From positions 32,001 through 96,000 of the forward strand of contig JBBILD010000010.1 of the NCBI GenBank assembly GCA_037445065.1: 64,000 bases of DNA, read 5' to 3'. Positions 37,713-59,406 of the stretch are shown here, piece after piece. Every line of letters begins with the position of its first letter. Position 1 is the stretch's first letter. Source of the DNA: Myxococcales bacterium (GTDB taxonomy: Bacteria > Desulfobacterota > Binatia > HRBIN30). The notes beneath the pieces were generated by a model that worked only from the letters and a program-made list of their open reading frames with translations, was not told the DNA's origin and did not search any database. The translations under genes were made by a program, and so were the position numbers.

Positions 37713-38930
37713 ATGGCAGCCGTGCGCACTCTCGCTCCGCAGGGACCCACCGACCCTCCCCTGCAGGGGTTCGCCCGCCGCTTTCGCCTCGTGGACTTTG
37801 CGGCCACCCGACAACCCCATTTTCGCAACCACGTGGTGTCGGTCGAACAAGTGCGCGCACTGCTCGACCGCTACGGTCCGGACGACTGCTTCTCTTCCAT
37901 CTTTTTCTTCTCCCATGAGATCCTGCTGTATCTCGAAGAGCATCGCGTAGCCGGCCGCCCTTCGCTCGCCGGCTACGACGGGCCTGTCTGGGCTCCCTTC
38001 CTCCCGATCGACATTGACGGCGAGCCGAGCGAACAGGGAGCCGAGCAAGCTCTGGCCATGGCGCGTGCCACGGTGGCCTTGCTGCGTTCTCGTTGGCAGG
38101 TGCCCGAGGCCGCGCTGCACGTCTACTTCAGCGGCGCGAAAGGATTCCACGTGTTGATTGACACGCGGGTCTTCGGGCGCGTTCCTCCGGCCAATGACCT
38201 GCACCGCGTGTTTTCTTACGCGCGCGCCGCACTCGCGTGCGACCTACCAACCTTCGAACATGCGCGCTTCGATTTGAGCATCGGCGACAAAGTGCGGCTC
38301 TTACGCCTGCCCAACACCCGCCACTCGCGCAGCCTGTTGTTCAAAGTGCCCCTCGAACTCGAGGAACTGGACCGACTCGCCATGGCAGAAATCCGCCAAC
38401 TCGCCGTTTCACCCCGTCCCCTGCGGCGAACAGCGTACGCCGGACTTCTACCCACGCAGGTAGTGACTGCGGTCAGCGTTGCGCACCAACTTCTCCAGCG
38501 CGCCCGGCGGGAGGCACGCCGGTACCGCGTGCACCCCTACCGGTTGCCAACGCCTCCGTCGTCCGCAGAAGAGGCGCTTTGCCCGGCCCGTCAAGCCATG
38601 GCCAGCGCCGACGTTCCCGTCGGGCTCCGCAACAACGTCGCCATTCGCCTCGCCTCCGCCCTGCGCCGGGCCGGCTACCAGCGCGAGTTCGTCACCCAGT
38701 TTTTGCTCGACTGGAACCACCGCCTCCATCACCCCCTGCCCGAGCGGGAGGTCCTCGCTGTGGTGCGCTCGGCCTTTGCGCGGCCGTATCCATACAATTA
38801 CGGCTGCCACGACGAAGTGATTCGCTCCTTCTGTCCCTTTCGCGAGCACCTCCTCGACTGCGAGTTCTACCGCGCTCAACACCGCAAAGCGGGCGGCCTG
38901 GGAGAAGCCGGGAGTCCGACGGACACCTAA
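37713..38930 (+). CDS. archaeo-eukaryotic primase (AEP) primase-polymerase with PriCT-like C-terminal domain
   Basis: Motif I PIDID, motif II FSGAKGFHV, motif III FD followed by RLLRLPNTRH. C-terminal GLRNN.AIRLA...WN...PL.EREV...VRSA. Confidence 0.85.
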   Translation: MAAVRTLAPQGPTDPPLQGFARRFRLVDFAATRQPHFRNHVVSVEQVRALLDRYGPDDCFSSIFFFSHEILLYLEEHRVAGRPSLAGYDGPVWAPFLPIDIDGEPSEQGAEQALAMARATVALLRSRWQVPEAALHVYFSGAKGFHVLIDTRVFGRVPPANDLHRVFSYARAALACDLPTFEHARFDLSIGDKVRLLRLPNTRHSRSLLFKVPLELEELDRLAMAEIRQLAVSPRPLRRTAYAGLLPTQVVTAVSVAHQLLQRARREARRYRVHPYRLPTPPSSAEEALCPARQAMASADVPVGLRNNVAIRLASALRRAGYQREFVTQFLLDWNHRLHHPLPEREVLAVVRSAFARPYPYNYGCHDEVIRSFCPFREHLLDCEFYRAQHRKAGGLGEAGSPTDT

Positions 38931-41027: not shown

Positions 41028-41950
41028 CCGCCGCCGCTCCCATTCAATGCTTGACGCGCCAGCAGGGCTGCCCCGATCACACCCGCGGAATCGCCTAGGG
41101 CGTGGCGGCAAAGCCGCGTCTCACAACGGTCGCTAAACACGTAGCGGGCCAAAAACTCGCGCCCAGCGCTGTAAAGTTCGTCAATGTTCGACATGCCGCC
41201 GCCCAACACAATGCAGTCCGGGTCAACGATGTTGACCACGTTCGCCAGGGCGCGCCCAAAATGCTGCAAATACTCCTCGAGCGCGCGTTGGGCTGCGGCC
41301 TCTCCGGCACGCGCCGCCACAACCACTTGCGCCGCCGGCTGCCAGCGCCCGCGCACCTCTGCCGCTCGGCGCTCGAAGGCTGGCCCACACAGCAAGGTTT
41401 CTACGCAGCCACGCTGCCCGCAGTAGCATTCGGGGCCATGGTCGAGGACGCGATGGTGCCCCCATTCCCCGGCGATGTGCTGCGCACCCTGCCAGATCTC
41501 GCCCCTCCACACCAAGCCACCTCCGACGCCGGTGCCGAGAATCACTCCGAAGACCAGATCGCAACCACGCCCAGCTCCCAGACACGCTTCGGCCCAGGCA
41601 AACAAGTTGGCGTCGTTTTCCATGGCAACGCGCACACCGAGCAGGCGCTCCAAGTCTTGCCGGAGGGGTTTTCCGTTCAAGCACGTGGTGTTGCAGTTCT
41701 TCATCGTTCCTGTGCGCGCCGATTCCGCCCCCGGCGTTCCAATCCCTACCACGCTCTGCCGCCCCGCTACCTGAACACAGCGCTCGTATACCTCACGCAC
41801 GCGGGCCAGGACATGCTCGTAGCCCAATTGGCGCTGAGTGGCCGTGCGATAGCGGAACACGACTTCGCCGTCTGGGCGAACCACCGCGCCCTCGACTTTG
41901 GTTCCACCCAAATCAATCCCGACCCAAGCTTCCCCGCGTACTTCGCTCAC
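41024..41950 (-). CDS. ROK family sugar kinase (fructokinase Mak-like)
   Basis: GIDLGGTK, MENDAN, ILGTGVGGG, AGEWGH, CYCGQRGCVE, LGGGMSN, GDSAGVIGAA. Confidence 0.93.
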   Translation of the reverse strand: MSEVRGEAWVGIDLGGTKVEGAVVRPDGEVVFRYRTATQRQLGYEHVLARVREVYERCVQVAGRQSVVGIGTPGAESARTGTMKNCNTTCLNGKPLRQDLERLLGVRVAMENDANLFAWAEACLGAGRGCDLVFGVILGTGVGGGLVWRGEIWQGAQHIAGEWGHHRVLDHGPECYCGQRGCVETLLCGPAFERRAAEVRGRWQPAAQVVVAARAGEAAAQRALEEYLQHFGRALANVVNIVDPDCIVLGGGMSNIDELYSAGREFLARYVFSDRCETRLCRHALGDSAGVIGAALLARQALNGSGGG

Positions 41951-41995
41951 CGCTTTCGCTCCACGAACCGGCACCTGTACCCGGAGCGGGTAAAC

Positions 41996-43288
41996 TCAAG
42001 GACTGGCGCCGTCCAACCCCAAGGCACGCAGCGCTTGCTCCCGACGGGCAGGCAGGAACTCCGGAGGCCACAGCCCCTCGTAAGGCTGAAAGCCCTTGAG
42101 CACTTGCCGCGCCACGGTCACCTTGTGCACCTCTGTGGGGCCATCGGCCACCGCCAACGCTGCCGCCGCAACCCACCACTGCATCAGCGGCAGTTCGTTC
42201 GAACACCCCAGAGCACCGTGCAAGTGGATCGCCCGGCGCACGACGTCATGCAGCACTTCGGCCATTTGTGCCTTCACGGCCGCAATGTACAAGCGCGCCG
42301 CATCGCGCAGCCCCTGGTCAATTTGCCAGGCCGTGAACAACACGAGCAGGCGAAACTGTTCGATCTGCACGAAGGAGTCCGCGATCATTTGCTGCACCAA
42401 CTGCTTGTTGGCGAGCACTTCTCCCTGAGTGCGGCGGCTCAGCGCCCTGTGACACATCATTTCCAGCGCTCGTTTCACCAGCCCGACCGTGCGCATCGCG
42501 TGGTGGATGCGCCCCCCTCCGAGCCGGGTCTGCGCAATGATGAAGCCCTGGCCCTCGCCGCCGAGCAAGTTCTCCTCCGGAAGCCGGCAATTCTCGAAGC
42601 GCACCAAGCAGTGGTGGCCTTGGCCGAGCGGTTCGGTTCCCAGACCGGCGCGGCGCACGATCTCCATCCCCGCCGTGCCGCGCGGGACCAGGAACATGGA
42701 CGATCCCTGGTGCACAGGCCGCTCAGGATTCGTAATCGCCATGACGATCAGGAACTCGGCCAAGTCGGCGTGCGAGGCAAAGTACTTTTCTCCCTGCAAC
42801 ACCCACTCGTGGCCATCCCGGCGAGCACGGCAGCAAAACTCGCGCGGATCGCTGCCCCCTTGTGGCTCGGTCATGGCGAAGCAAGACACGATCTCTCCAG
42901 CCAACAGCGGCTCCAAGTAACGCTTTTTCTGTTCCTCCGTTCCGTACACGGCCAGGATCTCCGCGTTCCCCGAGTCAGGCGCCTGGCAGCCAAAAATCGC
43001 CGGGGCCCATTGCGAGCGGCCGAGGATCTCGTTCATGAGCGCCAATTTCACCTGCCCGTAACCGGGCCCGCCCAGTTCGGGTCCGAGGTGGCACGCCCAT
43101 AACCCCTGTCTGCGCACTTCCTGCTTGAGCGGCTCCGTCAAGCGCCTCAGCAACGGGTCCCTTCGATCGTACGGTGCGGCGGGGTCCGGAAACGCCACGT
43201 CCAGTGGCTCTACCTTGCTGCGCACGAACTCATCCATCCACTCGAGCTTTCGCTGAAATTCCGCTTCGGTCGAAAAGTCCCACGCCAT
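41996..43288 (-). CDS. acyl-CoA dehydrogenase (ACAD10/11-like)
   Basis: FGCQAPDSGNAEIL, MTEPQGGSDP, RLGGGRIHHAMR, DGPTEVHK. Confidence 0.93.
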   Translation of the reverse strand: MAWDFSTEAEFQRKLEWMDEFVRSKVEPLDVAFPDPAAPYDRRDPLLRRLTEPLKQEVRRQGLWACHLGPELGGPGYGQVKLALMNEILGRSQWAPAIFGCQAPDSGNAEILAVYGTEEQKKRYLEPLLAGEIVSCFAMTEPQGGSDPREFCCRARRDGHEWVLQGEKYFASHADLAEFLIVMAITNPERPVHQGSSMFLVPRGTAGMEIVRRAGLGTEPLGQGHHCLVRFENCRLPEENLLGGEGQGFIIAQTRLGGGRIHHAMRTVGLVKRALEMMCHRALSRRTQGEVLANKQLVQQMIADSFVQIEQFRLLVLFTAWQIDQGLRDAARLYIAAVKAQMAEVLHDVVRRAIHLHGALGCSNELPLMQWWVAAAALAVADGPTEVHKVTVARQVLKGFQPYEGLWPPEFLPARREQALRALGLDGASP

Positions 43289-43384
43289 GGCTCTCTCGCT
43301 CCTTCCGATCCCTCATCCGCAAGCTGCATACCCGAGGCGCAGACGTACGCTCAAGCACGCCAAGCCAGTGTACGGGTGCCGCCG

Positions 43385-43423
43385 AAAACAAAAAGGCCAG
43401 CCTCCCGGAGGAAGCTGGCCTTT
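43385..43423 (-). terminator. rho-independent terminator
   Basis: Minus strand AAAGGCCAGCTTCC-TCCG-GGAGGCTGGCCTTT hairpin followed by a T-rich run, 30 bp after the stop of the Cys-rich gene. Confidence 0.85.
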
Positions 43424-43452
43424 CCACTACCGGCTGCCACTGCAAGGGATCG

Positions 43453-43944
43453 TTACGGGGCCGGCACGCTAAGGACTAAGCCGTCACAGTGGGGCAAGTT
43501 TCCAATCCGCGCCTCGGCTGCGTCGAGAACCGCAGCGCAGCGATCCGCGCAGCCATCCACGTCGAAGGAATCCCTCGATTGGGCGAGGCGATCGCACCGT
43601 TCCTCACATTTCGCAGCGCGCAGTCGCGCCTTGACGATTTGCGCCATACACCGAGTCGGGTCACTCACCGACGGGCTGGCAGTCCCGGTACAGATCGGGC
43701 GAGCGGAGATCGCCAAGATGCGGGCGTCAAAACGGTCTTGGCACTGCGACTGGCACGAGGCCAGCGTAGCCGGATCCGTTGTCCCGTTTTCGCAACGGGA
43801 AGAGCACTGGTAGAAGCGGGCCTGCGCCTGGAGTTTGGCCCGGTAACAGGGCAGCGGGTCCGGCGCCGCGCTGGCAGCGGAGGTAAGCAGCAGGGACAAA
43901 GCCGCGATGGTGGTTAGGGTCAGCGTTCGGTTGATCGGTTCCAT
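43453..43944 (-). CDS. secreted Cys-rich tandem-repeat protein
   Basis: RBS AAGGAG, Sec signal ending ASA-A, two 6-Cys repeats, own terminator. Confidence 0.8.
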   Translation of the reverse strand: MEPINRTLTLTTIAALSLLLTSAASAAPDPLPCYRAKLQAQARFYQCSSRCENGTTDPATLASCQSQCQDRFDARILAISARPICTGTASPSVSDPTRCMAQIVKARLRAAKCEERCDRLAQSRDSFDVDGCADRCAAVLDAAEARIGNLPHCDGLVLSVPAP

Positions 43945-44026
43945 GGTCTTCTCCTTTTCGAGGGTTTCGGGTTGCGAAGTCTTCGATCTTGTCGGCCGGC
44001 ATCAGATCGCTTGGCAGAAACCGAAA

Positions 44027-44042
44027 CCAAGTACCGTGCCAA
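44027..44042 (-). promoter_or_regulatory. candidate sigma54 promoter with variant -12 (TTGG)
   Basis: Minus strand TTGGCACGGTACTTGG: perfect -24 element TGGCACG, correct spacing, C-12 replaced by G. About 80 bp upstream of the Cys-rich gene. Confidence 0.6.
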
Positions 44043-44096
44043 CGACTTTCTTCGCACTGGCCACAGGGTTCGGCCCGGGCAGGCGGGCCCACTCGT

Positions 44097-44116
44097 CCGC
44101 TTGCCCGGACAAGCGG
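44097..44116. promoter_or_regulatory. 20-bp near-perfect palindrome, candidate enhancer (UAS)
   Basis: CCGCTTGCCCGGACAAGCGG has one mismatched pair and lies about 90 bp upstream of the inferred sigma54 start site. Confidence 0.45.
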
Positions 44117-44195
44117 CTGATTTTCCAGAATCGTTCCTCAAAAAAACTCCTACATCGGCTTTCGCTCCAGCGCCAGGAAGCGTAGGCTGCATGGT

Positions 44196-45740
44196 ATGAT
44201 TTTCCGAGGGGCAGCGACCGCCGCTCCGGAACGACTCGAGCAGGAACGCGACTTTTACCGGCACTTGCTCGAGCACAGCCCGGAGCAAGAACCCACTTCC
44301 TTCTTTCAGGACAGCCTCGCCTTTCTGACCGAACTCACAGGTGCAGCCCACGGCTACCTCGAACTGTTTCCGGCGGACACGGCGCACCCGGCTCACCCAT
44401 GGTTCGCTGCTCGTGGGTTGTCGGGAGGAGCCTTGGAGCAAGTGCGGGAGATCGTCTCGCGTGGCATTGTGGCGCAGGCGATTTCTTCCGGGTCCACGAT
44501 TGTCACCCCTGCCGCCTTCTTGGACCCGCGTTTCAACTCCTTTGCCAGCGTGGCGCAGCACCGAATGGGTGCTGTCCTGTGCACCCCAATTGGAAACGAC
44601 CCGCCGCTCGGCGTCCTCTATCTGTACGGCCACAGCAAGCCTGCAGGCTTTTGCGAACCAGACGTTGCTTTGGCGGAGCTGCTCGCCCGCCATTTAGTTC
44701 CGGTTGCAGAGCGACTGTTGGCCAAAGGCGCGACTCCAACCGAAGACAGCACGCGTGAGGTCCGCGCGCGGCTCAAGGCAAGCGGCATCGTAGGGCGGAG
44801 TGCAGCGCTCGGGCGGGTGCTCGAGCAAGTGGCAATGGTGGCAGGACTCGACGTGAGCGTCTTGTTCACCGGCGAGTCGGGTACAGGCAAGAGCCAAATG
44901 GCCCGCCTGCTGCACGACAACAGCCATCGCAGTCCCTTCCCGTTCGTCGAACTCAACTGCGCCGCACTGCCCGACACCCTGCTCGAAAGCGAGTTATTCG
45001 GTGCCGCTGCTGGCGCCCATTCGACTGCCGACCGTGCCTACGAAGGCAAGGTACAAGCGGCAGAGCGCGGCACGTTGCTGCTCGACGAAGTGGGAGAACT
45101 CTCCCTCCCGGCGCAAGCCAAGCTCTTACAGCTCCTCGACACACGCGAGTACTTCCCGCTGGGGAGTAACAAGCGGCGCAAGGCGGACGTGCGCATCGTC
45201 GCTGCCACCAACTGCGACCTGCGCTCGGCGGTCAAAGAGCACCGCTTTCGCGAGGATCTATTCTATCGACTGAACGTCCTCTCGATCGCCTTGCCCTCGC
45301 TTGCTGAGCGGCGGGACGACATTGCCGAGCTCGCCGAGGCCTTTTGCCGCAACGCATGCGTGCGTCATTCTTTGCCCGAGCTTCGCTTGTCGCGCAATGC
45401 GCTGCGCGCGCTCGAAGCCGCCGAGTGGCCCGGCAACGTGCGCCAGCTCCTGCACGTGGTAGAAGTCGGCACGATTCGCGCAGGGAGCGAAGGCGTGCAC
45501 CAGGCAGAGGTCAGACACCTCTTCCCCGAATCCGACGAGGGCACGGAAGGGAGGACTCCGGCCCCGGAATCCAACCTCACTTTCCAAGCGGCCACGCGCC
45601 GCTTCCAGGCTCAATTCATCCGTACCGTCCTCGAAGAAACGAATTGGAACGTGCCCGAGGCTGCTCGCCGCCTCGATATGGCCCGCTCGCACTTGTATTC
45701 GCTGATCCGCGCATTCGGCCTGGGGCGGCCTCAGTCCTGA
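44196..45740 (+). CDS. sigma54 enhancer-binding protein-like regulator (GAF-AAA+-Fis HTH) with GAHSTA loop
   Basis: GAF-like region (AVLCTPIG...GVLYL), GESGTGKS, ELNCAALP, ESELFG, LLLDEVGE, FREDLFYRLNV, WPGNVRQL, HTH NVPEAARRLDMARSHLY. Confidence 0.93.
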   Translation: MIFRGAATAAPERLEQERDFYRHLLEHSPEQEPTSFFQDSLAFLTELTGAAHGYLELFPADTAHPAHPWFAARGLSGGALEQVREIVSRGIVAQAISSGSTIVTPAAFLDPRFNSFASVAQHRMGAVLCTPIGNDPPLGVLYLYGHSKPAGFCEPDVALAELLARHLVPVAERLLAKGATPTEDSTREVRARLKASGIVGRSAALGRVLEQVAMVAGLDVSVLFTGESGTGKSQMARLLHDNSHRSPFPFVELNCAALPDTLLESELFGAAAGAHSTADRAYEGKVQAAERGTLLLDEVGELSLPAQAKLLQLLDTREYFPLGSNKRRKADVRIVAATNCDLRSAVKEHRFREDLFYRLNVLSIALPSLAERRDDIAELAEAFCRNACVRHSLPELRLSRNALRALEAAEWPGNVRQLLHVVEVGTIRAGSEGVHQAEVRHLFPESDEGTEGRTPAPESNLTFQAATRRFQAQFIRTVLEETNWNVPEAARRLDMARSHLYSLIRAFGLGRPQS

Positions 45741-45774
45741 GTGACCCCACAGCTTCCGAAAAACACCCGCTCTC

Positions 45775-48700
45775 ATGTTCCCCGACCACCCCCGCTTCCG
45801 GCAACTCTCCTTTTTGGGGGGCGGCAGCTTCGGGGTCGTGTTCCGAGCGTACGACGAGGAACTCGCGCTGGAGGTTGCGTTGAAAACCCTCATCGAGGCG
45901 AACGATGCCGACTTCTACGTCCTCAAACGCGAGTTTCGCCTCGTGGCTGACGTTCGCCACCAGAACCTGATCGAGTTGTTCGAGCTGTTCGTTTCTACAT
46001 CCGGGCAACCGTTTTTCACCATGGAGTTCGTCTCCGGACTGCCTTTCAACCAAGCTGTGCAATGGCGCCGACGGGAGCGGCCCCCGGTTGCAGCGGATGG
46101 CAACGCTGGCCCCGAAGAAGCTGTTGTCAATCGCATTCACCAGCTGATTGCCGCCGTGCACTGCCTGCATGTGGCCGGAGTGATGCACTGCGATATCAAG
46201 CCTTCGAACGTGCTCGTGCAGGACACGGGCCGGGTGGTGGTGCTCGATTTTGGACTCGCCAAGCGCATCGTTCCGGTTAATCCATTGCTGCGCGTGAGCA
46301 CCGGAGGAACGTGGGCCTACATGGCTCCCGAACTGGCCCTTGGCGAAACCGCTACGGAAGTGACCGACTGGTACAGCGTGGCTGCCCTCGTGTACGAGAC
46401 CGTCACCGGCGTCCCCCCGTTTCGCGGCGCTCCGTTCGAAATGCTGCAACAAAAGAGGCAGTGGGCCGCCAAGAAGTCCCTTTCTCCCGCCCTACCAATC
46501 CCAAAGCTGATGTGGGAGATGGTGCTCGCTGGCCTCGACCCTGACCCCAGGCTGCGCCCGGAGGAAGAAGACTGGGCAGAACTCATCGGTGCGCACGCGG
46601 CACCTGCCGAGCCTCGGGCTCCTGTTCTGCAAACCCGGAACGTGTTCGTGGGGCGGGATGAGGAGCGAGCCAAACTCGACGCGGCGTTCTGGCGAGTTCT
46701 CCAAGGCTACCCGGCAACCGTGCACGTAACGGGGCCGGCAGGCATTGGGAAGACACAGCTGATCGAGCACTTTTTGGAGAGTTTACCGAACCGCCACACC
46801 GCCTGCGTTTTGCACGGCCGCTGCAACCCCGCCGAGGCGGTGCCCTTCAATGCCTTCGACGGAATCGCGGACGAGCTGGCTGCGGTCCTGACCGAGCTTC
46901 CCGGCGAACAGCGCCCGCAACTTTCGCCCGATCAATGGAAGGACCTCGTTACTCTCTTCCCGGTGCTGCGCGCCCTGTCATCGCAAGACGCCGCTCGCGC
47001 GGATCCCACCCCCTCGCGCCGTCCCATCGAAGAACGCCGGAGTGGCTTTGCCGCATTCCGAGCCTTGCTGGATCGCCTTTCTCGCCTCATGCCGGTGGTG
47101 GTGTGGATCGAAGACCTGCACTGGGCGGACGCAGATAGCCACGTGCTGCTCCACGCGGTGCTGCGGGGTGTCCACCAACCCTCCTTGCTGCTGATCCTGA
47201 GCTACCGGAAGGAGTCAGACTCCATCGGCTTGCTTTCCGAACCGGGGACCGCCACGCCTGGCGCCCAACCTGCCTGGGAGGAGCGGATTTCTCTCGAGCC
47301 GTTGCCTCCCGCCCAAGCGCGGCTGCTCGCCGAGCACTACCAGCGTACAGCGAATGCGTGCGCGACAACGGATCTCGAGCCTCTCCTCTACGAGGCGGGA
47401 GGGTCGCCCCTGCTCATCGTACAACTGCTGGCTCATGCCCGCGCAGGCGGCGCGGGGCGTTCCTCATCCGCATCGCCCTCGCTGGGGCGGATCCTCACAG
47501 AACGGCTGCGTGCACTACCCCTGCCCGGACGGCTGATGGTGGAGGCAGCCGTGGTGGCTGGCCACCCAGTGCCAAAGCAAGCCCTCATCGAGGCTGGAGG
47601 CATCGGTGAAAAGGGCCGGCTCGCACTGCGCCAAGCCGAGATCGGAAGGCAGCTGCGCATGCTCCCGGGTCGCGGCGACACCGAAGTGGACGTGTTTCAC
47701 CAGCGGGTCGGCGAAGCTTTGCTCGTTTCGATTCCTGCGCCAACCCGCGCCGCACACCATTCGTTTTGGCTGCGCTGCGCTTTAATCCAAGGGGAGCAAG
47801 ACCCCGAACGCGTCTTGCTCCATGCTCTCGGTGCGGGCGAAACCCGCACCGCCGCAGAGTGGGCGGCTCGGGCAGCCCAACGGGCGGAGGGCAACCTGGC
47901 CTTTGCGCACGCAGCCGACCTCTATGGGCAAGCTCTTACCCTGGCAACGTGGCCACCCGCGCAGGCGCTCGAACTCGAGCAGCGGCGAGCAGAAGCCTTG
48001 GTATCCGCGGGCCGCGGGGCAGAAGCAGCGCCGTTGTTTGCGGCCGTCTCCACCCACGCCCAGGGCAAGGAACGGGATGTGTTCTTGCAGCGGGCCGCAG
48101 AGCAGTACCTCGTCAGCGGGCTTTTGGGTGAAGGAACCGCGGTCCTGCGCGAGGTGCTGCGCAACGCCAAACTCCCCTACCCGCGTAGTGGTACGGCAGC
48201 CTCGCTTCGCGTCCTCGGGCGGATCGTCCGCTCGTACTGGAAGCCGCGCCTGGGGTGGGGTCCACGGCGCGCTGGGGCAAACCGCTGGCGGGTGCAACTC
48301 GAGGCGGCGGAGTCTGCAGCCAAAGGCCTCGCCTTTGTAGATCCCCTGCGCGGTCAGTACTTCGCGCTGCGCCGCCTCGCCGCCGCTAAGGCGCTGGGGG
48401 ACCAGGAGCAACTCGCTCTTGCCCTCTGTACCACGGGCGCCACGTTGTTGCCCATTCGCGGTCCGTTTTCCCGCTGGGCGCGCCGCCTGATCGCCGAAGG
48501 TTGCAGCTTAGCCGAGTCGCAGGCAAGTCCATACGTGCGCGCAACGGTTTGCCAAACTCTCGCGCAAGTATCCATGCTCGAATGCCGCTGGAACGAGATG
48601 TCCACTCTGTGCGAAGAGGCCCTTGGCCTTTTGCAGCGTCACTGCCCGCGCCAACGCTGGGAAGTCGCCGTCGCTACGATGGCCAAGCTCCGCGCAGAGG

Positions 48701-49458
48701 ATGAACTCGGTCGCATCGAAGCCTTGCGCCGCGATGCCTGGGAATGGCTCGAGCAGGCCAGCGCGCTCGGTGACCGCTACTCCGCTTGCGTCGCCTGGGA
48801 GTACTTCGGTTGGGCCTGCCTGCTGTTCGGTGACACTGCCACCGCGCGGCACGCCGTGCAGCGAGTGGAGGCACTTTGGATCCCAGCGGGGTTTCAGATG
48901 CAACATTTCTACGCCGCCCGACTGAGTGCCTATGCCGAGCTGGTGGACGGGCGTCCCGAAGCTGCCTGGGAACGAGCACAGGTGCTTTGGCAGAACGCTC
49001 GCGCGCATGGCCTACTCCGCCACGTCCTCCTCGGCCTCGATGCCGATCTGTTGCTCTTGCGCACCTGGGCCGCCCACGGGGCAGCCTTGGGTCACGGCAC
49101 CACCCGCCCGCCGCGCTGGCTTGCGCGGCGCGCCGCCGCTTTGCGCAAGAGCCCGCGCGCCGACGCTCGCGGCTATACCGCACTGGTCGAAGCCGGCAGT
49201 GCGGCCCTGCGGGGGAATGCAGAGGTCGCACGTGCGCAGTTGGCCGAGGCCGCCACCTGTTTCGAGGCGGCTCAAATGAGCTTGGCCCACCGCCTCGCCA
49301 CCTACCTGATCGGACCAAATGAGGTCACGGGACTGGCGCAACGCCCGCTTTGCACGGCCAGCACCGAGCAAACCAGCGCAAACCGACCCGATCTGCGGCT
49401 TCTCACACGCGTCTTCGCGCCCGGATTCGTTCGTGCCCCCCACTTTGACCGAGCCTGA
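45775..49458 (+). CDS. Ser/Thr protein kinase fused to AAA_16/STAND-like NTPase and helical (TPR-like) repeats
   Basis: LGGGSFGVV, VALK, HCDIKPSN, DFG, GTWAYMAPE; then FVGRDEE, Walker A GPAGIGKT, Walker B VWIEDLHWAD, GGSPL. Confidence 0.92.
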   Translation: MFPDHPRFRQLSFLGGGSFGVVFRAYDEELALEVALKTLIEANDADFYVLKREFRLVADVRHQNLIELFELFVSTSGQPFFTMEFVSGLPFNQAVQWRRRERPPVAADGNAGPEEAVVNRIHQLIAAVHCLHVAGVMHCDIKPSNVLVQDTGRVVVLDFGLAKRIVPVNPLLRVSTGGTWAYMAPELALGETATEVTDWYSVAALVYETVTGVPPFRGAPFEMLQQKRQWAAKKSLSPALPIPKLMWEMVLAGLDPDPRLRPEEEDWAELIGAHAAPAEPRAPVLQTRNVFVGRDEERAKLDAAFWRVLQGYPATVHVTGPAGIGKTQLIEHFLESLPNRHTACVLHGRCNPAEAVPFNAFDGIADELAAVLTELPGEQRPQLSPDQWKDLVTLFPVLRALSSQDAARADPTPSRRPIEERRSGFAAFRALLDRLSRLMPVVVWIEDLHWADADSHVLLHAVLRGVHQPSLLLILSYRKESDSIGLLSEPGTATPGAQPAWEERISLEPLPPAQARLLAEHYQRTANACATTDLEPLLYEAGGSPLLIVQLLAHARAGGAGRSSSASPSLGRILTERLRALPLPGRLMVEAAVVAGHPVPKQALIEAGGIGEKGRLALRQAEIGRQLRMLPGRGDTEVDVFHQRVGEALLVSIPAPTRAAHHSFWLRCALIQGEQDPERVLLHALGAGETRTAAEWAARAAQRAEGNLAFAHAADLYGQALTLATWPPAQALELEQRRAEALVSAGRGAEAAPLFAAVSTHAQGKERDVFLQRAAEQYLVSGLLGEGTAVLREVLRNAKLPYPRSGTAASLRVLGRIVRSYWKPRLGWGPRRAGANRWRVQLEAAESAAKGLAFVDPLRGQYFALRRLAAAKALGDQEQLALALCTTGATLLPIRGPFSRWARRLIAEGCSLAESQASPYVRATVCQTLAQVSMLECRWNEMSTLCEEALGLLQRHCPRQRWEVAVATMAKLRAEDELGRIEALRRDAWEWLEQASALGDRYSACVAWEYFGWACLLFGDTATARHAVQRVEALWIPAGFQMQHFYAARLSAYAELVDGRPEAAWERAQVLWQNARAHGLLRHVLLGLDADLLLLRTWAAHGAALGHGTTRPPRWLARRAAALRKSPRADARGYTALVEAGSAALRGNAEVARAQLAEAATCFEAAQMSLAHRLATYLIGPNEVTGLAQRPLCTASTEQTSANRPDLRLLTRVFAPGFVRAPHFDRA

Positions 49459-49502: not shown

Positions 49503-50657
49503 ATGTACGAGCCAGGAGAGGACATTTACGGCAGTCCGGAGCACCGCGCGTTTCGCGACACGGTGCGGCGCTTCGTGCAAACCGAACTCGTGCCGCGAGC
49601 CCGCGAGTTCGACAAAATGGGCCGCATCGACAAGTCGCTCTACCGCAAGATGGGGCAGCTGGGCTTGCTCGGTATCCGCTACGACCCCAAGTACGGTGGC
49701 CTCGGGCTGGACTACTCCTACCACGCCATTTTTCTCGAAGAGATCGCCCTGTGCGACAATGCCGGCGTGGCCATGGGCATCTCGGTGCAAACCGACATGG
49801 CCACCCCCGCCTTGCATCGTTTCGGCAGCGAAGAACTCAAGCAGAAGTACCTGGTGCCTGCGATTCGCGGCGAAATGGTGGCGGCGATCGCGGTGACCGA
49901 ACCTGGAGCCGGCTCCGACGTGGCGCGCATTCAGACCCGCGCCGTGCGTGACGGCGATTACTGGGTGATCAACGGCTCGAAAATGTACATTACCAACGCG
50001 GCAACGGCGGACTGGCTGTGCTTGCTTGCGGTCACCGATCCGGAAGCTGGGTACAACGGCTTCACCCAAATCATCGTACCCACCGATACGCCGGGGTTCA
50101 GCTACAAGCTACTCGACAAAATCGGCAACATTGGCTCGGACACTGGGCTCTTGTTCTTCGACGATGTGCGCGTGCCGATCACCAACACCATTGGCGACCC
50201 CAGCCGCGGCTTCCAGCAACAAATGATGCAGTTTCAAGATGAACGCATGGTGCCGGTGGTCATGTCGCCGGTGCAGGCGCGGCAACTGTGGGAGATCACA
50301 CTCAAACACTGCCAGGAGCGGGTGGTGTTCGGAAAACCCTTGTCCAAGCATCAGGTAAACCAGCACCGCTTCGTGGACATGCTGATCCAAATCACCGCGG
50401 CGCAGGAGTTGGCTTACCGCTGCATCCGCCTCATGCAAAGCGGTGTGGACGCGACCAAGGAAATCTCCATGGCCAAGGTCTTCAACTCGAACATGCTGCA
50501 GTACGTAGCGACCACCTGCCTGCAACTCTTCGGGGGCGCCGGGTACTGCTGGGAGAATCCTGCCGCTCGCGCTTTCGTAGATTCACGCCTGCTGACCATT
50601 GGCGGCGGCGCGGACGAGGTGATGAAGCAAATCGTCGCCAAGCTGCTGCAAATCTGA
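49503..50657 (+). CDS. acyl-CoA dehydrogenase (AtuD/FadE13-like)
   Basis: [35 protein letters not shown]. Confidence 0.93.
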
Positions 50658-50670
50658 GCCCGCGCTGGCC

Positions 50671-52266
50671 ATGCCTGTTTTGCCGACCCGCATCGACCCC
50701 AAGTCCGAAGCCTTCCGCAGCAACTACCAGGCAATGCTCGAGCAAGTGCGCTTTCTCGAAGAGCAGCTTGCTCTGGCGCGCGCGGGAGGGGGCGAGAAGT
50801 ACGTGCAACGCCACCGGGAACGCGGCAAGCTCTTGCCGCGCGAGCGGATCGAGTTGCTGCTCGATCGGGACTCTCCGTTCCTCGAACTCTCACCGCTGGC
50901 GGCCTGGGGCACCGAGTACACGGTGGGAGCGGGTGTGGTCACGGGAATCGGGGTGGTCAGCGGCGTCGAGTGCGTCATTGTCGCCAACGATCCGACCGTC
51001 AAAGGCGGCGCGATCAACCCGTACGGCCTGCAAAAGAACCTGCGGGCCATGGAAATTGCAGCCAAGAACCGCCTCCCCCTGATCAACCTCACCGAGTCGG
51101 CCGGGGCAGACCTCCCCGTGCAAGCGCAAATCTTCGTGCCCGGAGGCAAGACCTTCCGCGAACTCACGCGTCGCTCGGCAGAGCGCATCCCCACCATTTG
51201 CCTCGTGTTCGGAAGCTCCACTGCCGGAGGCGCCTACGTGCCGGGCATGTCGGACTACGTGGTGATGGTCAAAGGGCAAGCCAAGGTTTTCCTCGGCGGG
51301 CCGCCACTGGTGAAAATGGCCACCAACGAGGATGCCGACGAAGAAACCCTAGGCGGAGCCGAGATGCACAGCCGCGTCTCCGGGGTATCGGACTACTTGG
51401 CCGAGGATGAGTACGATGCCATCCGCATCGGGCGCGAGATCGTTGCTCACCTGAACTGGCGCAAGCTCGGCGAAGCGCGGCTGCAGCAACCGGAAGACCC
51501 TCGGTACGACCCGGATGAGCTTCTCGGCATCGGTTCGATGGATTTGCGCAAACCGTTCGAGGTGCGCGAAGTGATTGCGCGCATCGTAGATGGCTCGCGA
51601 TTCGAGGAATTCAAAGCCAACTACGGCACAACCCTGGTCACTGGTTGGGCTCACCTACACGGGTTCCCGCTCGGCATCGTCGCCAACAACGGGATTTTGT
51701 TTTCCGAATCCTCGCAAAAGGCGGCCCAATTCATCCAGCTCTGCAACAAGATCGACGTGCCGATTTTGTTCTTGCAAAACATCACCGGCTACATGGTCGG
51801 GGTCCAGTACGAACAAGGGGGGATCATCAAGGACGGCGCAAAAATGATCAACGCGGTCGCGAACTCTACCGTGCCGATGTTTACCGTGATGATCGGCAGC
51901 TCCTACGGAGCCGGCAATTACGGAATGTGTGGGCGGGCCTACGACCCGCGCTTTTTGTTTACCTGGCCCAACCACCGCATCGCGGTGATGGGTCCGGAAC
52001 AGCTTGCCGGGGTCATGTCCATCGTGCGCCGTCAAGCGGCCGAGCGCGCTGGCCAAACCTATGACGAGGAGCAAGACCGGCTCGTGCGGCAGATGGTCAT
52101 CGAACAAATCGAGAAGGAGTCCAACGCGTTTTATGCAACCGCCCGCATCTGGGACGATGGTATCATTGACCCGCGCCAGACGCGCAACGTACTGGCCATC
52201 GCCCTCAGCGCATCCTTCAGCAACTTGGTGCGCGGCACCGATACCTACGGTGTGTTCCGGATGTGA
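50671..52266 (+). CDS. acyl-CoA carboxylase carboxyltransferase subunit (AtuC/AccD2-like)
   Basis: [48 protein letters not shown]-terminal GVFRM. Confidence 0.93.
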
Positions 52267-52284
52267 GCGAGCAGGACGGAGAGT

Positions 52285-54285
52285 ATGAAACCCATCCGCA
52301 AAGTATTGGTGGCAAACCGCGGGGAGATCGCACGGCGCATTTTCCGCGCCTGCCGTGCCCTCGGCTTCGAAACCGTAGCCGTGTATGCCGACCCTGATCG
52401 CGAGGCACCGTTCGTACGCGAGGCGGACGAGGCAGTCTACATCGGCTCGCCGGTCACCGGCGGATCGTTTCTGGCATTCGAAGCGATTTTGCACGCCGCG
52501 GCGCTCACCGGCGCCGATGCTGTGCATCCTGGCTACGGTTTTCTGGCAGAAAACGCAGACTTCGCGGAAGCCTGCGAACGACAAGGTCTTTGTTTTGTGG
52601 GGCCGCCGGTTGCAGCAATCCGTGCCATGGGCACCAAAATCGATGCGAAAACCATCGCCCAAAACGCTGGCGTACCGATCATTCCGGGCTTTTCTGCTGC
52701 CGGGCTCAGCGACGAGGAGATCGTGCGCAGAGCGCGCCAGTTGCGCTTTCCCCTCCTGGTCAAAGCCTCGGCCGGTGGCGGGGGAAAAGGCATGCGCCGG
52801 GTGGACTCACCGGAGGCTCTGGCGGCGGCGCTGGCTCCGGCGCGGCGAGAGGCACAAGCCGCTTTCGGTGACGACACGTTGCTGATCGAGCGATACATCG
52901 AACATCCGCGCCACATCGAAATCCAAATTTTTGGCGACCAGCACGGAAACATCGTGCACTTGTTCGAGCGCGAGTGCTCCATCCAACGCCGCTACCAAAA
53001 AATCATCGAGGAGGCACCTTCGCCTTTCGTCAACGATGTGTTGCGCGAGCGCATGGGGGCAGCCGCCGTCGCACTCGCTCGTAGCCTCGGGTACTACAGC
53101 GCCGGGACCGTCGAGTTCGTGGTCGACCGCGATGGGAACTTTTACTTCCTCGAGGTCAACACGCGCCTGCAAGTCGAGCATCCCGTCACCGAAGAAATCA
53201 CCGGCATCGATCTAGTCCAGCTCCAGTTCTCCGTGGCGCAAGGGGAGCCACTCCCGTTTGCGCAAGAAGACTTGTGCATCTCCGGGCATGCGATCGAGGC
53301 GCGCTTGTACGCGGAAGATCCCGAACACGATTTCTTGCCGTCTACCGGCACACTGGCCGTTTGGCAACCGCGCCCAAGCACCGGAGTTCGCTACGAAAGC
53401 GGAGTGGAGGCCGGGTCCGCGGTCACCATTCACTACGACCCGATGCTCGCCAAGATCATTGCCCGCGGCTCTCATCGCACCCAGGCCATACGCCGCTTGC
53501 GCACGGCGCTGGCCTCGCTGCGGGTCCACGGCGTGCGCACCAACCGCGACTTCTTGCTTGCCATTCTGGACCATCCGGAATTTGCCGCCGGAGCCACCGA
53601 CACCCACTTTATCCCCCGCCACTTCCCGACGTTCTCGCGCAACCAAACCGGGCAGACCGATCGCTTGCATGCCCTCGCCGCCGCACTCTGGGAACAAGCC
53701 GAACGGCGCCGCGCCTCGCCTGTGCTGCGCTCTCTACCCTCCGGCTGGCGCAACAACCCGAGCCAACGGCAGTGGTGCGAGTACGCCGCCGGAGCCGACA
53801 CAGTACGGGTGGAGTACCGAGTCCTGGAGCGGGGAGAGGTCGAGGCGCTCGTGAACGGCGCACCTCACAACGCCCGCATCGTGAGCGCGGATGGCGCTGG
53901 TATCGCGCTCGAGGTGGACCAGGTGCGCCGCTACTTCGAGGTGGTGGCACAAGGAGAATGGCGGTACGTAGACAGCGTCCTGGGCAGCAGCGCCTTGCGG
54001 GAGCTACCGCGCTTCCCGGAACCGCAGAGCGAGCGGGTGGAGGGCGGCTGCAGCGCGCCGATGCCAGGCAAAATCATTGACGTGCGCGTGCGCGCCGGAG
54101 ACCGGGTCCGCCGTGGCGACGTGCTGGTCATCCTGGAGGCCATGAAGATGGAACACGAAGTCAGTGCGCCTGCCGACGGCGTGGTGCGCGAGGTGCGGGT
54201 CGAGGTTGGGCAACAAGTGGAAGCCGGAAGTCTCCTAGTCGTACTGGAGGAAACCACCAGTGAGGAGGGAAGAGCCAATGAGTGA
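52285..54285 (+). CDS. acyl-CoA carboxylase biotin carboxylase/BCCP subunit (AtuF/AccA2-like)
   Basis: VANRGEIA, HPGYGFLAEN, GGGGKGMR, RECSIQRR, EVNTRLQVEH, biotin site EAMKME. Confidence 0.95.
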   Translation: MKPIRKVLVANRGEIARRIFRACRALGFETVAVYADPDREAPFVREADEAVYIGSPVTGGSFLAFEAILHAAALTGADAVHPGYGFLAENADFAEACERQGLCFVGPPVAAIRAMGTKIDAKTIAQNAGVPIIPGFSAAGLSDEEIVRRARQLRFPLLVKASAGGGGKGMRRVDSPEALAAALAPARREAQAAFGDDTLLIERYIEHPRHIEIQIFGDQHGNIVHLFERECSIQRRYQKIIEEAPSPFVNDVLRERMGAAAVALARSLGYYSAGTVEFVVDRDGNFYFLEVNTRLQVEHPVTEEITGIDLVQLQFSVAQGEPLPFAQEDLCISGHAIEARLYAEDPEHDFLPSTGTLAVWQPRPSTGVRYESGVEAGSAVTIHYDPMLAKIIARGSHRTQAIRRLRTALASLRVHGVRTNRDFLLAILDHPEFAAGATDTHFIPRHFPTFSRNQTGQTDRLHALAAALWEQAERRRASPVLRSLPSGWRNNPSQRQWCEYAAGADTVRVEYRVLERGEVEALVNGAPHNARIVSADGAGIALEVDQVRRYFEVVAQGEWRYVDSVLGSSALRELPRFPEPQSERVEGGCSAPMPGKIIDVRVRAGDRVRRGDVLVILEAMKMEHEVSAPADGVVREVRVEVGQQVEAGSLLVVLEETTSEEGRANE

Positions 54286-55039
54286 CCCGGTACTCTACGA
54301 GGTCGAGGGCTTCGCTGCACGCCTCACCTTAGCCCGGCCGGAGCGCCGGAATGCTCTTAGCGACGATTTGGTGGATGCTCTCCTCAGCGGCCTGCGGCGC
54401 GCGCTGGCCGACGAGCACGTGCGGGTGGTGGTGCTGACCGCGCAAGGCAACACGTTCTGCGCAGGAGCGGATCTCAAGGCCGGAGGCGTCGCACGGCGCA
54501 GCGGCGAACAACCCTTCGTAACGCTACTCCGGACTTTGTGGGACTCCCCAAAGCCCGTCATCGGCTGCATCCCTGGTTCGGCCTACGGCGGCGGGGTTGG
54601 ACTCATGGCTGCGTGCGACCTCGTGCTCGCCGCCGAGGAGGCGAGTTTTGCCTTTAGCGAGGTGCGCATCGGGGTGGTTCCAGCAATGATTTCGGTCGTG
54701 GTGCTGCCTAAAATCGGCATCCAGCACGGCATGTGGCTCTTTCTCACGGGCGAGCGCTTCGATGCCCGGCGCGCCCAGGAAATCGGGCTCGTGCACCGCG
54801 TTCTGCCGCGGCAGGAACTCAGCCGCGGCTTGCAGGAACTCCTCGAGATGTTGCGCCTTGCCGGGCCGAAAGCCCTACAGCACGCCAAGTGGCTGGTTCG
54901 CAACGTGCCTGGCATGCCCATGCAAGAAGCCTTCGCCCGCACGAGTACTCTGATCGCTGAGCTGTTCGCTTCCCCCGAGGCACAAGAAGGCATGCGCGCC
55001 TTCGCGGAGAAGCGCCAGCCAAGCTGGGCGAGCGAGTGA
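54278..55039 (+). CDS. enoyl-CoA hydratase (methylglutaconyl/isohexenylglutaconyl-CoA hydratase-like)
   Basis: RPERRNAL, FCAGADL, GGGVGL, FSEVRIG, EGMRAFAEKR. Follows the carboxylase genes. Confidence 0.9.
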   Translation: MSDPVLYEVEGFAARLTLARPERRNALSDDLVDALLSGLRRALADEHVRVVVLTAQGNTFCAGADLKAGGVARRSGEQPFVTLLRTLWDSPKPVIGCIPGSAYGGGVGLMAACDLVLAAEEASFAFSEVRIGVVPAMISVVVLPKIGIQHGMWLFLTGERFDARRAQEIGLVHRVLPRQELSRGLQELLEMLRLAGPKALQHAKWLVRNVPGMPMQEAFARTSTLIAELFASPEAQEGMRAFAEKRQPSWASE

Positions 55040-57378: not shown

Positions 57379-57945
57379 TCAGGAACGAGGCGGGTACTTG
57401 CGCAGCTTTCGCTGGAGCGAGCGACGGTGCATGCCCAGCCGCCGGGCAGCTTCCGAGACATTTCCACCACAATCGGCCAAAACGCGGTTGATGTGTTCCC
57501 ATTCGGCGCGGGCCAGCGAGGGAGCCACGTATTCGGGCGATGGTTCCAGAGGAGGTGCGCTGGCACGGGCAAAGGCCGCGAGCACATCGTCCGCATCGGC
57601 CGGCTTGCTCACGTAGTACGCAGCACCCAGGCGAATCGCCTCGATTGCGGTCGCAATGCTGCCGTAGCCGGTGAGTACCAAGATTTTCGTGCCGGCGCAG
57701 AGGGCATGCAGGTCGCGAGTCAGCTCCAAACCCGAACGCCCGACCAGCCGCAAGTCAATCACGGCCAAATCCGGGGGCTGCTCGCGGGCAAGCTCCATGG
57801 CTTGCTCGTAGCCCGCCGCGCTGCGCACCTTGAGCCCGCGCTGGAGCAGCGCTCGAGCCAGGCGCTCGCGAAACACCTCGTCGTCATCCACCAAGAGCAG
57901 GTCCTTCCCCTTGAACTCAGCTACCGGCTCGACTGCCTCGTCCAT
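57379..57945 (-). CDS. regA: RegA/PrrA/ActR family response regulator
   Basis: LLLVDDD, VIDLRL, LTGYGSIATA, EWEHI, HTH NVSEAARRLGMHRRSLQRKL. Confidence 0.93.
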   Translation of the reverse strand: MDEAVEPVAEFKGKDLLLVDDDEVFRERLARALLQRGLKVRSAAGYEQAMELAREQPPDLAVIDLRLVGRSGLELTRDLHALCAGTKILVLTGYGSIATAIEAIRLGAAYYVSKPADADDVLAAFARASAPPLEPSPEYVAPSLARAEWEHINRVLADCGGNVSEAARRLGMHRRSLQRKLRKYPPRS

Positions 57946-59369: not shown

Positions 59370-59406
59370 ATCCCGCGGCTTGGTGCCACTCGCTATCGGA
59401 CGTGCG

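Follow-up and report, generated by a model that had tools for sequence, protein, structure and literature searches.

An enhancer-binding protein clade with a GAHSTA loop, a neighbouring PknK-like kinase and a divergent gene for an exported Cys-rich protein in a Binatia genome

Sigma-54 activators are defined by the GAFTGA loop, a signature regarded as all but invariant. How, then, might an activator work in which this loop has been replaced throughout a lineage, and what might switch it on? The question is raised by positions 43385-49458 of a 64-kb window (the whole stretch that was analysed, 64,000 nucleotides of contig JBBILD010000010.1 from a Myxococcales bacterium placed by GTDB in the Binatia). 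The cassette consists of three genes: one for a small exported 12-Cys protein (P0001) and, divergent from it, those for a NifA-like activator (P0002) and a PknK-like kinase-STAND NTPase (P0003). Our best reading, to which we give a rough probability of 45%, is that the PknK-like STAND kinase gates the NifA-like activator, which drives the divergent gene from a sigma-54-type promoter. The G+C content of the cassette is 0.61-0.69, against 0.61-0.67 window-wide, and we read the cassette as a native chromosomal regulatory module. The parts that a first-pass annotation had listed here (the terminator, the 12-Cys gene, the -24/-12 site, the palindrome, the activator, the kinase and the flanking genes) all lie where it had placed them or within a few bases. 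Coordinates are collected in Table 1.

P0002 is built in the order N-terminal helix, GAF domain, AAA+ sigma-54 interaction domain and Fis-type helix-turn-helix (HTH). Pfam recognises GAF_2 at residues 32-167 (7.1e-12), Sigma54_activat over profile positions 1-167 of 168 (6e-60), AAA_lid_14, and HTH_8 at residues 469-501 (4.9e-07). The best relative of solved structure is NifA (9qq6_C, E 1.3e-67), matched over residues 29-500 and covering GAF, AAA+ and HTH. P0002 thus has the AAA+ motifs, GAF and HTH of a sigma-54 activator, but it lacks GAFTGA (or GAYTGA/GSFTGA): in a gap-free alignment to NifA and ZraR, its L1 loop reads GAHSTA where GAFTGA is expected. We hold with moderate confidence that P0002 works like a sigma-54 activator, and do not claim full membership of the class for it.

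The loop is the property of a whole lineage. Relatives were taken as the best 120 of 8000 scored candidates (all 8000 at E<=0.001) and share 54-97% identity with P0002. Among these 120 the loop is G-x-H-S-x-x in every one (120/120) and exactly GAHSTA in 108/120, and F or Y at position 3 occurs in 0/120. A genome scan with patterns generic to all enhancer-binding proteins gave 80 loci, namely 79 with a canonical GAFTGA activator, which served as controls, and one locus in a Kofleriaceae genome (L001), whose activator is 46% identical to P0002 and has the loop GSHSAA. The AAA+ domains of 41 clade proteins (P0002 plus 40 relatives, taken at every third place among the 120) were placed in a tree together with those of the L001 activator and the 79 canonical ones. 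The variant-loop proteins form one clade apart from the 79, with support 1.0 and a stem of 0.63 substitutions per site. Their nearest canonical relatives in the tree, from loci L013 and L042, have the loops GAFTGA and GAYTGA; both are without the usual His after ELFG (ELFGTEAG, ELFGAEAG) and may represent an intermediate state of the loop region.

The ATPase of the clade appears to be sound. P0002 has intact Walker A and Walker B motifs, FREDLFYRL arginines and sensor residues, all of them invariant in 35 aligned clade members (G226, G229, T230, G231, K232, D297, E298, N339, R352, R358 and R416), which argues for a working motor, not a decayed one. Clade-specific positions, defined as at least 90% fixed in the clade and at most 10% in the canonical controls, cluster round the loop (H270A, F275H, T276S, G277T, F286V); others are E233S and L234Q just after the Walker A lysine, and N420H. 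As judged from these alignments, the clade loop is remodelled yet conserved, and it sits on an intact motor.

Published inventories offer a reason why such proteins may have gone undescribed. In the available parts of their texts, the surveys of 2011 (PMC3162934) and 2025 (PMC12316311) retained only proteins with an intact GAFTGA, so that members of the GAHSTA clade would have been discarded. A literature search for GAHSTA returned no relevant match and no description of the clade, within a coverage that excluded the supplements of PMC12754779 and of the 2025 survey; AHSTA, GAHS and SHSTA are absent from six supplementary text files of the 2011 survey. A large clade of activators with a GAHSTA loop would therefore be new, having been overlooked by motif-filtered surveys. 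In a plasmid collection the best match to the activator is 38% identical and has a canonical loop.

The kinase gene follows the activator gene on the same strand after a gap of 34 bp, and no terminator-like site was found between the two or after the kinase gene. The architecture of P0003 is of the widespread PknK type, and one database source gives the name 'PknK' to its homologue P0245. Pfam finds Pkinase (2.6e-36) and AAA_16 (7.5e-25, residues 291-474), with NACHT below the cut-off (0.0076), and has no match past residue 482, leaving about 750 aa. P0003 has no transmembrane segment. The catalytic Lys, Asp, Asn and DFG residues (K37, D140, N145 and D158) are invariant in 40 aligned proteins (P0003 and 39 homologues). 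The NTPase part has the Walker A sequence GPAGIGKT and the Walker B region WIEDLHWAD (DD/ED). The catalytic loop of P0003 and its two closest relatives reads HCD in place of HRD; this is the case in 6/121 proteins (the 120 best homologues and the query), versus HRD in 98/121, and at 6/121 it is best seen as a quirk of the lineage.

The C-terminal region of P0003 is a candidate helical, TPR-like (tetratricopeptide repeat) region by its sequence features: residues 500-1227 resemble AAA_16 and TPR_12 clusters in an Atlas feature search, with scores of 0.93-0.99. A PDB sequence search with residues 286-1227 (942 aa) gave 0 matches at E<=1. Identity is even along the length of the protein, at 50/52/54/52/44% to the homologue P0127 and 35/37/35/38/30% to P0130. 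The C-terminus is thus conserved like the catalytic domains and does not behave as a hypervariable or fast-evolving sensor.

The pairing of the two regulators recurs. Named relatives of the three proteins are mostly Candidatus Binatia, and the Atlas look-alikes are Binatota, so that the cassette probably comes from a Binatota bacterium. For the database homologues, linkage was read from equal sizes of the longest contig, with the 120 best listed per search for activator and kinase. The clearest case is a distant Binatia genome, in which kinase P0130 (37% identity) is KatS3mg077_1161 and activator P0060 (57%) is KatS3mg077_1162; both are on a contig of 1,736,220 bp and the genes are adjacent. 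Activator P0059 and kinase P0160 share a longest contig of 9,277 bp, the source label and the contig count, and are probably a further pair, the chance of such a coincidence being about 0.1-0.2 by our own rough estimate. A near-identical relative, with 158,488 bp for activator and kinase alike, is a trivial case. A link between the exported protein and the kinase is likewise indicated: P0127 (52% identical to P0003) and the Cys protein P0125 (53% identical to P0001) both have a longest contig of 30,021 bp, although this sharing was seen only in the nearest relative. The recurrent pairing of the GAHSTA clade with a kinase-STAND protein is new.

L001 shows a looser version of the pairing than the window does. 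Its activator gene is followed by two unknown open reading frames (ORFs), by an M57 peptidase whose N-terminus has a hydrophobic stretch, and then by a Pkinase-nSTAND1-FGE-sulfatase protein, the Pkinase-nSTAND1 gene lying 2.7 kb downstream of the activator. Divergently upstream lie the genes of two 4-Cys proteins, exported or lipoprotein-like, which are paralogues of each other and have no relation to P0001. Variable secreted genes divergent from the activator had been predicted by the first-pass annotation; exported Cys proteins of another family at L001 fit that expectation, which for now stands on n=2 loci. About 50 bp upstream of the L001 activator gene are six tandem copies of an 11-bp unit, GACGTGCGATC (9834-9901), and palindromes of the form GTCCAYG...CRTGGAC occur at 9665-9680, 9790-9806 and 9824-9839. 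These repeats and palindromes are candidate binding sites by their sequence and are unlike those of the window. A sigma-54-like site with one mismatch, CTGGCACGGCCGCTGCT, lies 6 kb upstream of the activator at 4008-4024 on the minus strand; it faces an ORF without a family match (2891-3994) and an OmpA-family gene (507-2765).

Kinase ORFs were also sought in the fetched flanks of the control loci with the kinase domain (phmmer), and were found at 8/79 canonical loci in addition to L001. Pfam found an AAA_16 or STAND domain in 0/9 of the kinase ORFs of canonical loci, one of the nine being cut by a contig end. Plain Ser/Thr kinase genes lie within 1-2 kb of a canonical GAFTGA GAF activator in a Myxococcaceae genome (L029, 6188-8389), an Archangium genome (L069, 760-2544) and a Rhodothermales genome (L020, 3276-3974, where the genes overlap). 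The neighbourhood of kinase and activator is therefore broader than the variant-loop clade.

The 251-bp divergent intergenic region (43945-44195) contains a promoter-like site and a palindrome. Compared with the extended -24/-12 consensus yTGGCACGrnnnTTGCw, taken from the available text of PMC12754779, the promoter-like site has a perfect extended -24 element and departs only at the C of the -12 GC. Within the 64 kb no other sequence matches the extended pattern with at most one mismatch (0.25 expected; 22/100 shuffles had at least one). With the GG taken as -25/-24, our own arithmetic puts the predicted start site near 44015, giving a 5' untranslated region of about 71 nt. No sigma-70-like promoter was found in 43200-44300.

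Upstream of this site is the near-perfect palindrome, centred at about -92 from the predicted start site and lying 80-99 bp upstream of the activator start codon; it is the sole exact match within the window. A third half-site is centred at about -66. The pattern CCGGRCARGCGG has three exact copies in the window against 0.22 expected, all inside 42 bp (44075-44116; two of them overlap as the palindrome halves), a statistic that is circular, as the pattern was derived post hoc from these same bases. The palindrome also scores as terminator-like on the plus strand. Because no plus-strand gene ends upstream, we take it for a protein-binding site rather than a terminator, and it is a candidate binding site of the activator on the strength of its sequence and place. 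The regulatory layout outlined in the first-pass annotation, in which a palindrome and a sigma-54-like site precede a divergent target, is coherent, and the atypical activator it had pointed out carries the GAHSTA loop as a trait of its entire clade.

At the other end of the 12-Cys gene, 28 nt past its stop, the terminator hairpin is very stable on the minus strand (free energy -31.6 kcal/mol, z -4.6; 0/200 shuffles equally stable), and the U-run UUUUUGUUUU directly follows its stem in the minus-strand reading. Since the hairpin is bordered by an A run and a T run, it could terminate in both directions.

Table 1. Features of the cassette and its flanking genes (positions in the 64-kb window; UAS, upstream activating sequence)
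Position	Strand	Feature	Basis or remark
41996-43288	-	Acyl-CoA dehydrogenase gene	Pfam; flank on the Cys-gene side
43392-43423	-	Intrinsic terminator hairpin of the 12-Cys gene	Arms 43392-43405 and 43410-43423, 14 nt, 93% complementary, 4-nt loop
43453-43944	-	Gene for exported 12-Cys protein P0001, 163 aa	ORF; signal-peptide-like N-terminus
44026-44042	-	Sigma-54-type -24/-12 promoter-like site TTGGCACGGTACTTGGT	Consensus match; points at the 12-Cys gene
44075-44086	+	Third copy of the 12-mer half-site, CCGGGCAGGCGG	Exact match; starts 30 bp before the right half-site (44105)
44097-44116	.	Near-perfect 20-bp palindrome CCGCTTGCCCGGACAAGCGG, CCGCTTG-n6-CAAGCGG	9/10 symmetric pairs; candidate UAS/operator
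44196-45740	+	Gene for NifA-like enhancer-binding protein P0002, 514 aa	Pfam GAF_2, Sigma54_activat, AAA_lid_14, HTH_8
45775-49458	+	Gene for PknK-like soluble Ser/Thr kinase-STAND NTPase P0003, 1227 aa	Pfam Pkinase and AAA_16
49503-50657	+	Acyl-CoA dehydrogenase gene, isovaleryl-CoA-dehydrogenase-like	Pfam; flank downstream of the kinase gene

The presumed output of the module, P0001, belongs to an exported tandem-hairpin Cys family that is small, new and unnamed. Its gene has a Shine-Dalgarno-like AAGGAG just 5' of the ATG. Behind a signal peptide are two 6-Cys helical hairpin modules with the spacing C-x13-C-x3-C-x12-C-x3-C-x16-C. A word-based search found only two relatives, the one that is 53% identical keeping 12/12 Cys, and an exhaustive search by profile raised the number to 46 representatives at E<=1e-3, 11 of them reaching E<=1e-10. 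In an alignment of 40 of the 46 and the query, 6 of the 12 Cys columns are invariant and 6 are at least 90% conserved. Left out were P0262 and P0275 (repetitive or low-complexity and apparently unrelated), P0284 (a 911-aa fusion) and the partial P0269, P0286 and P0288. By a crude rule, 39/41 family sequences have signal-peptide-like N-termini. In P0284 the 12-Cys tandem-hairpin module stands at the N-terminus of a large exported FG-GAP repeat protein, which indicates that it can act as a domain. No second copy of P0001 was found in the window or in the 80 scanned loci.

An AlphaFold2 model of P0001 from a 3-sequence alignment (pLDDT 74.9, pTM 0.42) predicts two helical hairpins, one of helix 31-54 with helix 58-80 and one of helix 96-123 with helix 129-148. 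The two halves of the protein are homologous by HHalign (probability 99.1%, E 4.8e-19); BLASTP between them is not significant. Each hairpin has CX3C on both helices and an outer Cys pair, so arranged that a three-rung disulfide ladder per hairpin may be presumed. No fitting Pfam or NCBIfam family was found for the P0001 family (weak Vicilin_N matches in 2/41, NCBIfam in 0/41), and a Foldseek search of the PDB with P0001 gave 0 matches at E<=0.001. A copper storage protein (Csp; DUF326, which we take to be the name of its Pfam family) was considered and rejected: P0001 has no Pfam match, the 41 family members have no such match, and the only Csp-like signal is a weak Foldseek row to BsCsp3 at E 5.2. 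Our guess is that P0001 is a stable extracytoplasmic protein of a binding, inhibitor-like or protective kind.

Taken together in the preferred reading, these parts would operate as follows. Activator and kinase would be co-transcribed. The STAND part of P0003 would bind a cytoplasmic cue, and nucleotide-dependent oligomerisation would switch on its kinase domain. The kinase would then phosphorylate or otherwise gate the activator, whose GAF domain would serve as a second input. An active ATPase ring would assemble on the palindrome and the third half-site and, from about -92, would remodel the sigma-54 holoenzyme at the -24/-12 site. The output would be a single monocistronic gene with a strong terminator, encoding an exported protein of two helical hairpins stapled by predicted disulfides. 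The same sites, 80-120 bp upstream of the activator gene, may also autoregulate the activator, as in PexR. We infer a chain of control that leads from the kinase to the activator and on to the Cys gene, by way of phosphorylation, binding of the activator to DNA and dependence on sigma-54. As to the phosphorylation site, one may speculate on the Ser and Thr that are invariant in the loop throughout the clade. A wider proposal, tentative and in our judgement rather unlikely, is that GAHSTA proteins are a large overlooked class that still drives sigma-54 promoters, by means of a His-Ser-Thr loop and residues around it that have co-adapted (H270A, F286V, E233S), and that the loop Ser/Thr or the GAF domain is switched by the cognate STAND kinase; alternatively, the clade may serve a specialised sigma-54 or promoter variant, comparable to the RpoN paralogue-specific activators of Cereibacter sphaeroides.

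A number of observations weigh against the preferred reading. Published mutagenesis, as summarised in the available part of PMC3162934, found activation mostly lost when the central F and T of GAFTGA were altered, so that GAHSTA should fail with ordinary sigma-54. The conserved C of the -12 GC is mismatched in the promoter-like site, the divergent intergenic region of L001 has no acceptable -24/-12 site, and there is no rpoN within the window. A shorter -24/-12 pattern matches 2 times in 64 kb with at most one mismatch (2.77 expected) and 42 times with at most two (37.8 expected). As these counts are at chance, the support for function comes from the position and orientation of the site and not from enrichment; our own arithmetic gives about 5 in 10,000 for a chance match landing in the 251-bp region on the correct strand. 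Linkage has its adverse points as well. The 71%-identical activator P0005 has a longest contig of 20,902 bp and not 30,021 bp, which leaves the three genes together not demonstrated in a second organism. Among the matches listed, only 2/37 clade activators on contigs of at least 20 kb match the contig of a listed kinase, and four of the seven closest kinase homologues (73,000; 43,263; 56,026 and 125,546 bp) lack an activator partner among those listed. Only the best 120 of each search enter these comparisons, which makes the 2/37 uninformative rather than negative and leaves general linkage not shown. The clade member P0113 runs into a weak TodX/FadL-like match (27.4 bits, below the cut-off) and not into a kinase. 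The Cys family has 46 representatives against 8000 activator candidates at E<=0.001 (the variant-loop share of the 8000 was not counted), and the output gene thus seems not to be conserved across the clade. The first-pass annotation had expected GAHSTA activators to co-occur with kinase-AAA genes and the three genes to be linked in other genomes. The adjacency of KatS3mg077_1161 and KatS3mg077_1162 bears out the former in one distant genome and falls short of a general rule; of the latter, the kinase-activator and Cys-kinase pairs are recovered, and the full trio has been seen together only in the window.

The same facts can be read to mean that P0002 is independent of sigma-54, as are TyrR, DhaR, HupR, VpsR and Caulobacter NtrC. 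It would then be a classical activator or repressor of sigma-70-type promoters, its own or that of the Cys gene or both, and the -24/-12 match would be due to chance. Both the central F and the central T of GAFTGA are replaced, and the surveys PMC3162934 and PMC12316311, in their available parts, treat such loop changes as loss of sigma-54 function. Sigma-70-dependent homologues are listed in the available text of PMC3162934, and papers on VpsR and Caulobacter NtrC exist. The broken -12 GC and the missing site at L001 fit this account, as does a palindrome just 80-99 bp in front of the activator start codon. Known independent homologues, however, have deleted or degenerate loops, whereas here the loop is invariant in the clade and the ATPase motifs are kept, suggesting a working, substrate-engaging loop. 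The perfect extended -24 element at the right distance and in the right orientation, and the failure to find a sigma-70-like promoter in 43200-44300, also speak for sigma-54. We consider independence from sigma-54 possible but doubtful.

A different assignment of the target would leave the Cys gene as an unrelated neighbour and have the activator-kinase pair mainly regulate the flanking genes of acyl-CoA and leucine catabolism. Enhancer-binding proteins often control acyl-CoA pathways (PrpR, AtoC, BkdR). The pair stands between two acyl-CoA dehydrogenases and directly upstream of a methylcrotonyl-CoA carboxylase cluster, which starts 44 bp past the kinase stop without a terminator, so that read-through from the regulator genes is possible, and P0113 continues into its TodX/FadL-like region. 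However, neither dehydrogenase has a -24/-12-like site or a copy of the palindrome upstream; the only elements of this kind are in the divergent region, on the side of the Cys gene, which itself recurs with the kinase on the 30,021-bp contig of the nearest relative. Catabolic control is improbable on this balance. We judge it similarly improbable that kinase and activator are mere neighbours, or co-expressed genes answering separate cues, with the activator working through its GAF domain alone. The activator does have a sensor domain of its own, its interaction with the kinase is deduced, and Ser/Thr kinases are common near activators in these phyla, as the 8/79 control loci illustrate. The kinase-AAA_16 protein, however, recurs beside clade members at 37% and 57% identity and beside canonical activators in 0/79, and the genes are spaced by 34 bp without a terminator.

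Finally, the first-pass annotation had likened the cassette to an innate-immunity or conflict circuit with a NOD-like receptor (NLR)-like sensor kinase. On that view a STAND sensor would detect an invader and induce a secreted effector. A STAND NTPase is indeed fused to an effector domain, the catalytic loop of P0003 is of the non-RD type (HCD), and the output genes are exported, Cys-rich and variable across the two loci seen. These features are outweighed. PADLOC matches only generic kinase and AAA+ activator domains and gives none for the Cys protein; composition is native, and the surroundings are metabolic, with no mobile or defence genes seen adjoining the cassette. The idea of an NLR-like variable sensor does not survive the even conservation of the kinase, whose C-terminus has changed no faster than its catalytic domains. 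HCD occurs in only the 6/121 proteins noted above, and the Binatia partner has HRD. To our knowledge, inducing transcription of a single Sec-exported small protein is not the mode of known STAND defence systems. The PknK architecture is common, and the available text of PMC4601284 provides a precedent for its control of a neighbouring transcription factor. An immune or conflict circuit is accordingly very improbable.

The remainder of the window is rich in acyl-CoA metabolism genes. The leucine/isovalerate-catabolism-like cluster at 49503-55039 (plus strand) comprises the acyl-CoA dehydrogenase and, beyond it, both methylcrotonyl-CoA-carboxylase-like subunits (a carboxyltransferase and a biotin carboxylase with BT_MCC_alpha) and an enoyl-CoA hydratase. 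A further cluster (14016-20465, minus strand, and 19515-22109, plus strand) encodes an EB_dh (ethylbenzene-dehydrogenase-like) subunit, a 4Fe-4S subunit, a 1220-aa molybdopterin oxidoreductase and a nitrate-reductase-delta-type chaperone, and is adjoined by thiolase-like and ChsH2-like genes; it suggests a hydroxylation of the anaerobic type, with a hydrocarbon or steroid side chain as substrate. On the minus strand, a response regulator consisting of a receiver and a Fis-type HTH_8 without an AAA+ domain (57379-57945) overlaps by 29 bp with a histidine kinase that has a PilS-like six-transmembrane domain (57917-59389). Within the histidine kinase gene is the second -24/-12-like site of the window, with one mismatch to the short pattern (58029-58044, minus strand). 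A 405-aa protein with a PriCT_1 (primase C-terminal) domain (37713-38930, plus strand), possibly a mobile-element remnant, stands amid metabolic genes. A 666-aa ORF without a family match (41102-43102, plus strand), lies antisense to the genes for a ROK-family protein and an acyl-CoA dehydrogenase; it is almost certainly spurious, a shadow ORF of high-G+C DNA. Rfam gave 0 matches in 43000-46000 at E<=1 and 0 in the whole window at gathering scores, and no tRNA was found.

The practical consequence of the GAHSTA clade is that maps of the sigma-54 regulon in Binatota, Myxococcota and related phyla would lack its members. If the clade activates sigma-54, as the near-consensus promoter suggests, the accepted rule on the F and T contacts will have to change, with the loop as a natural experiment on how the ATPase engages sigma-54. 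If it does not, this is the first large, conserved and still ATPase-competent lineage that is sigma-54-independent. Either way, the recurrent pairing with a PknK-type STAND kinase suggests how Ser/Thr phosphorylation could gate a transcription motor of the AAA+ type, by a route that can be tested, and were the kinase to gate the loop or the GAF domain, a eukaryote-like kinase input would be wired directly into the sigma-54 motor.

Several known systems resemble parts of the cassette. Each half of P0001 is a predicted helix-loop-helix with CX3C on both helices, like the plant alpha-hairpinins and vicilin-buried peptides (CX3C-Xn-CX3C), and Foldseek matches the walnut peptide Jug r 2 locally, with a TM score of 0.84 over 35 columns. 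The profile of P0001 matches vicilin peptides marginally (E 0.21 and 0.57), and no significant sequence or whole-fold match to alpha-hairpinins or vicilin peptides was found. Unlike these peptides, P0001 is a bacterial protein with a signal peptide, in which two modules stand in tandem and each hairpin has a third Cys pair; convergence probably accounts for the likeness. P0002 matches NifA across GAF, AAA+ and HTH, and the activity of NifA is gated by a separate sensor protein, NifL, encoded next to nifA. However, NifA has GAFTGA, NifL is a PAS/histidine-kinase-like anti-activator and not a Ser/Thr kinase-STAND protein, and there are no nif genes in the window. An AAA+ domain of the sigma-54-activator type without GAFTGA is shared with TyrR, DhaR, HupR, VpsR and Caulobacter NtrC. 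These are scattered cases, TyrR, DhaR, HupR and VpsR having deleted or degenerate loops according to the available text of PMC3162934, whereas the present clade is large and monophyletic, keeps its ATPase motifs intact and has a different hexamer fixed throughout.

The combination of a transcription factor, a neighbouring Ser/Thr kinase and a divergent target is in itself known ground, and the closest known layouts are PexR-ahpC and PknK-VirS-mymA. The available text of PMC12754779 describes PexR-ahpC/katB of Myxococcus xanthus as a GAF-AAA+-HTH activator divergent from its target across less than 300 bp. The validated sigma-54 promoter there is preceded by three arm-n6-arm dyad sites (CACCG-n6-CGGTG), and sites close to the promoter of the regulator itself exert repression as well. 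The cassette shares with it the GAF activator, the divergent target, the arm-n6-arm geometry and the place of the sites near the regulator's promoter, the sites here being predicted ones. PexR was considered as the identity of the activator and rejected, since according to the Fig. 7 legend of PMC12754779 it keeps GAFTGA, which puts it outside the variant-loop clade. Its sites differ in sequence from the CCGCTTG-n6-CAAGCGG seen here, the available part of that paper mentions no partner kinase, and its targets are peroxide-defence enzymes, not an exported Cys-rich protein. PknK of Mycobacterium tuberculosis, as described in the available text of PMC4601284, is a soluble kinase of the Hanks type that has a STAND region at its C-terminus, responds to a cue not yet known, phosphorylates VirS and thereby controls the mymA operon. 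P0003 is likewise a soluble Hanks kinase with a C-terminal STAND region, a likeness by shared domain types. The difference lies in the substrate: VirS is an AraC-type regulator working with ordinary RNA polymerase, whereas the presumed substrate of P0003 is an AAA+ enhancer-binding protein.

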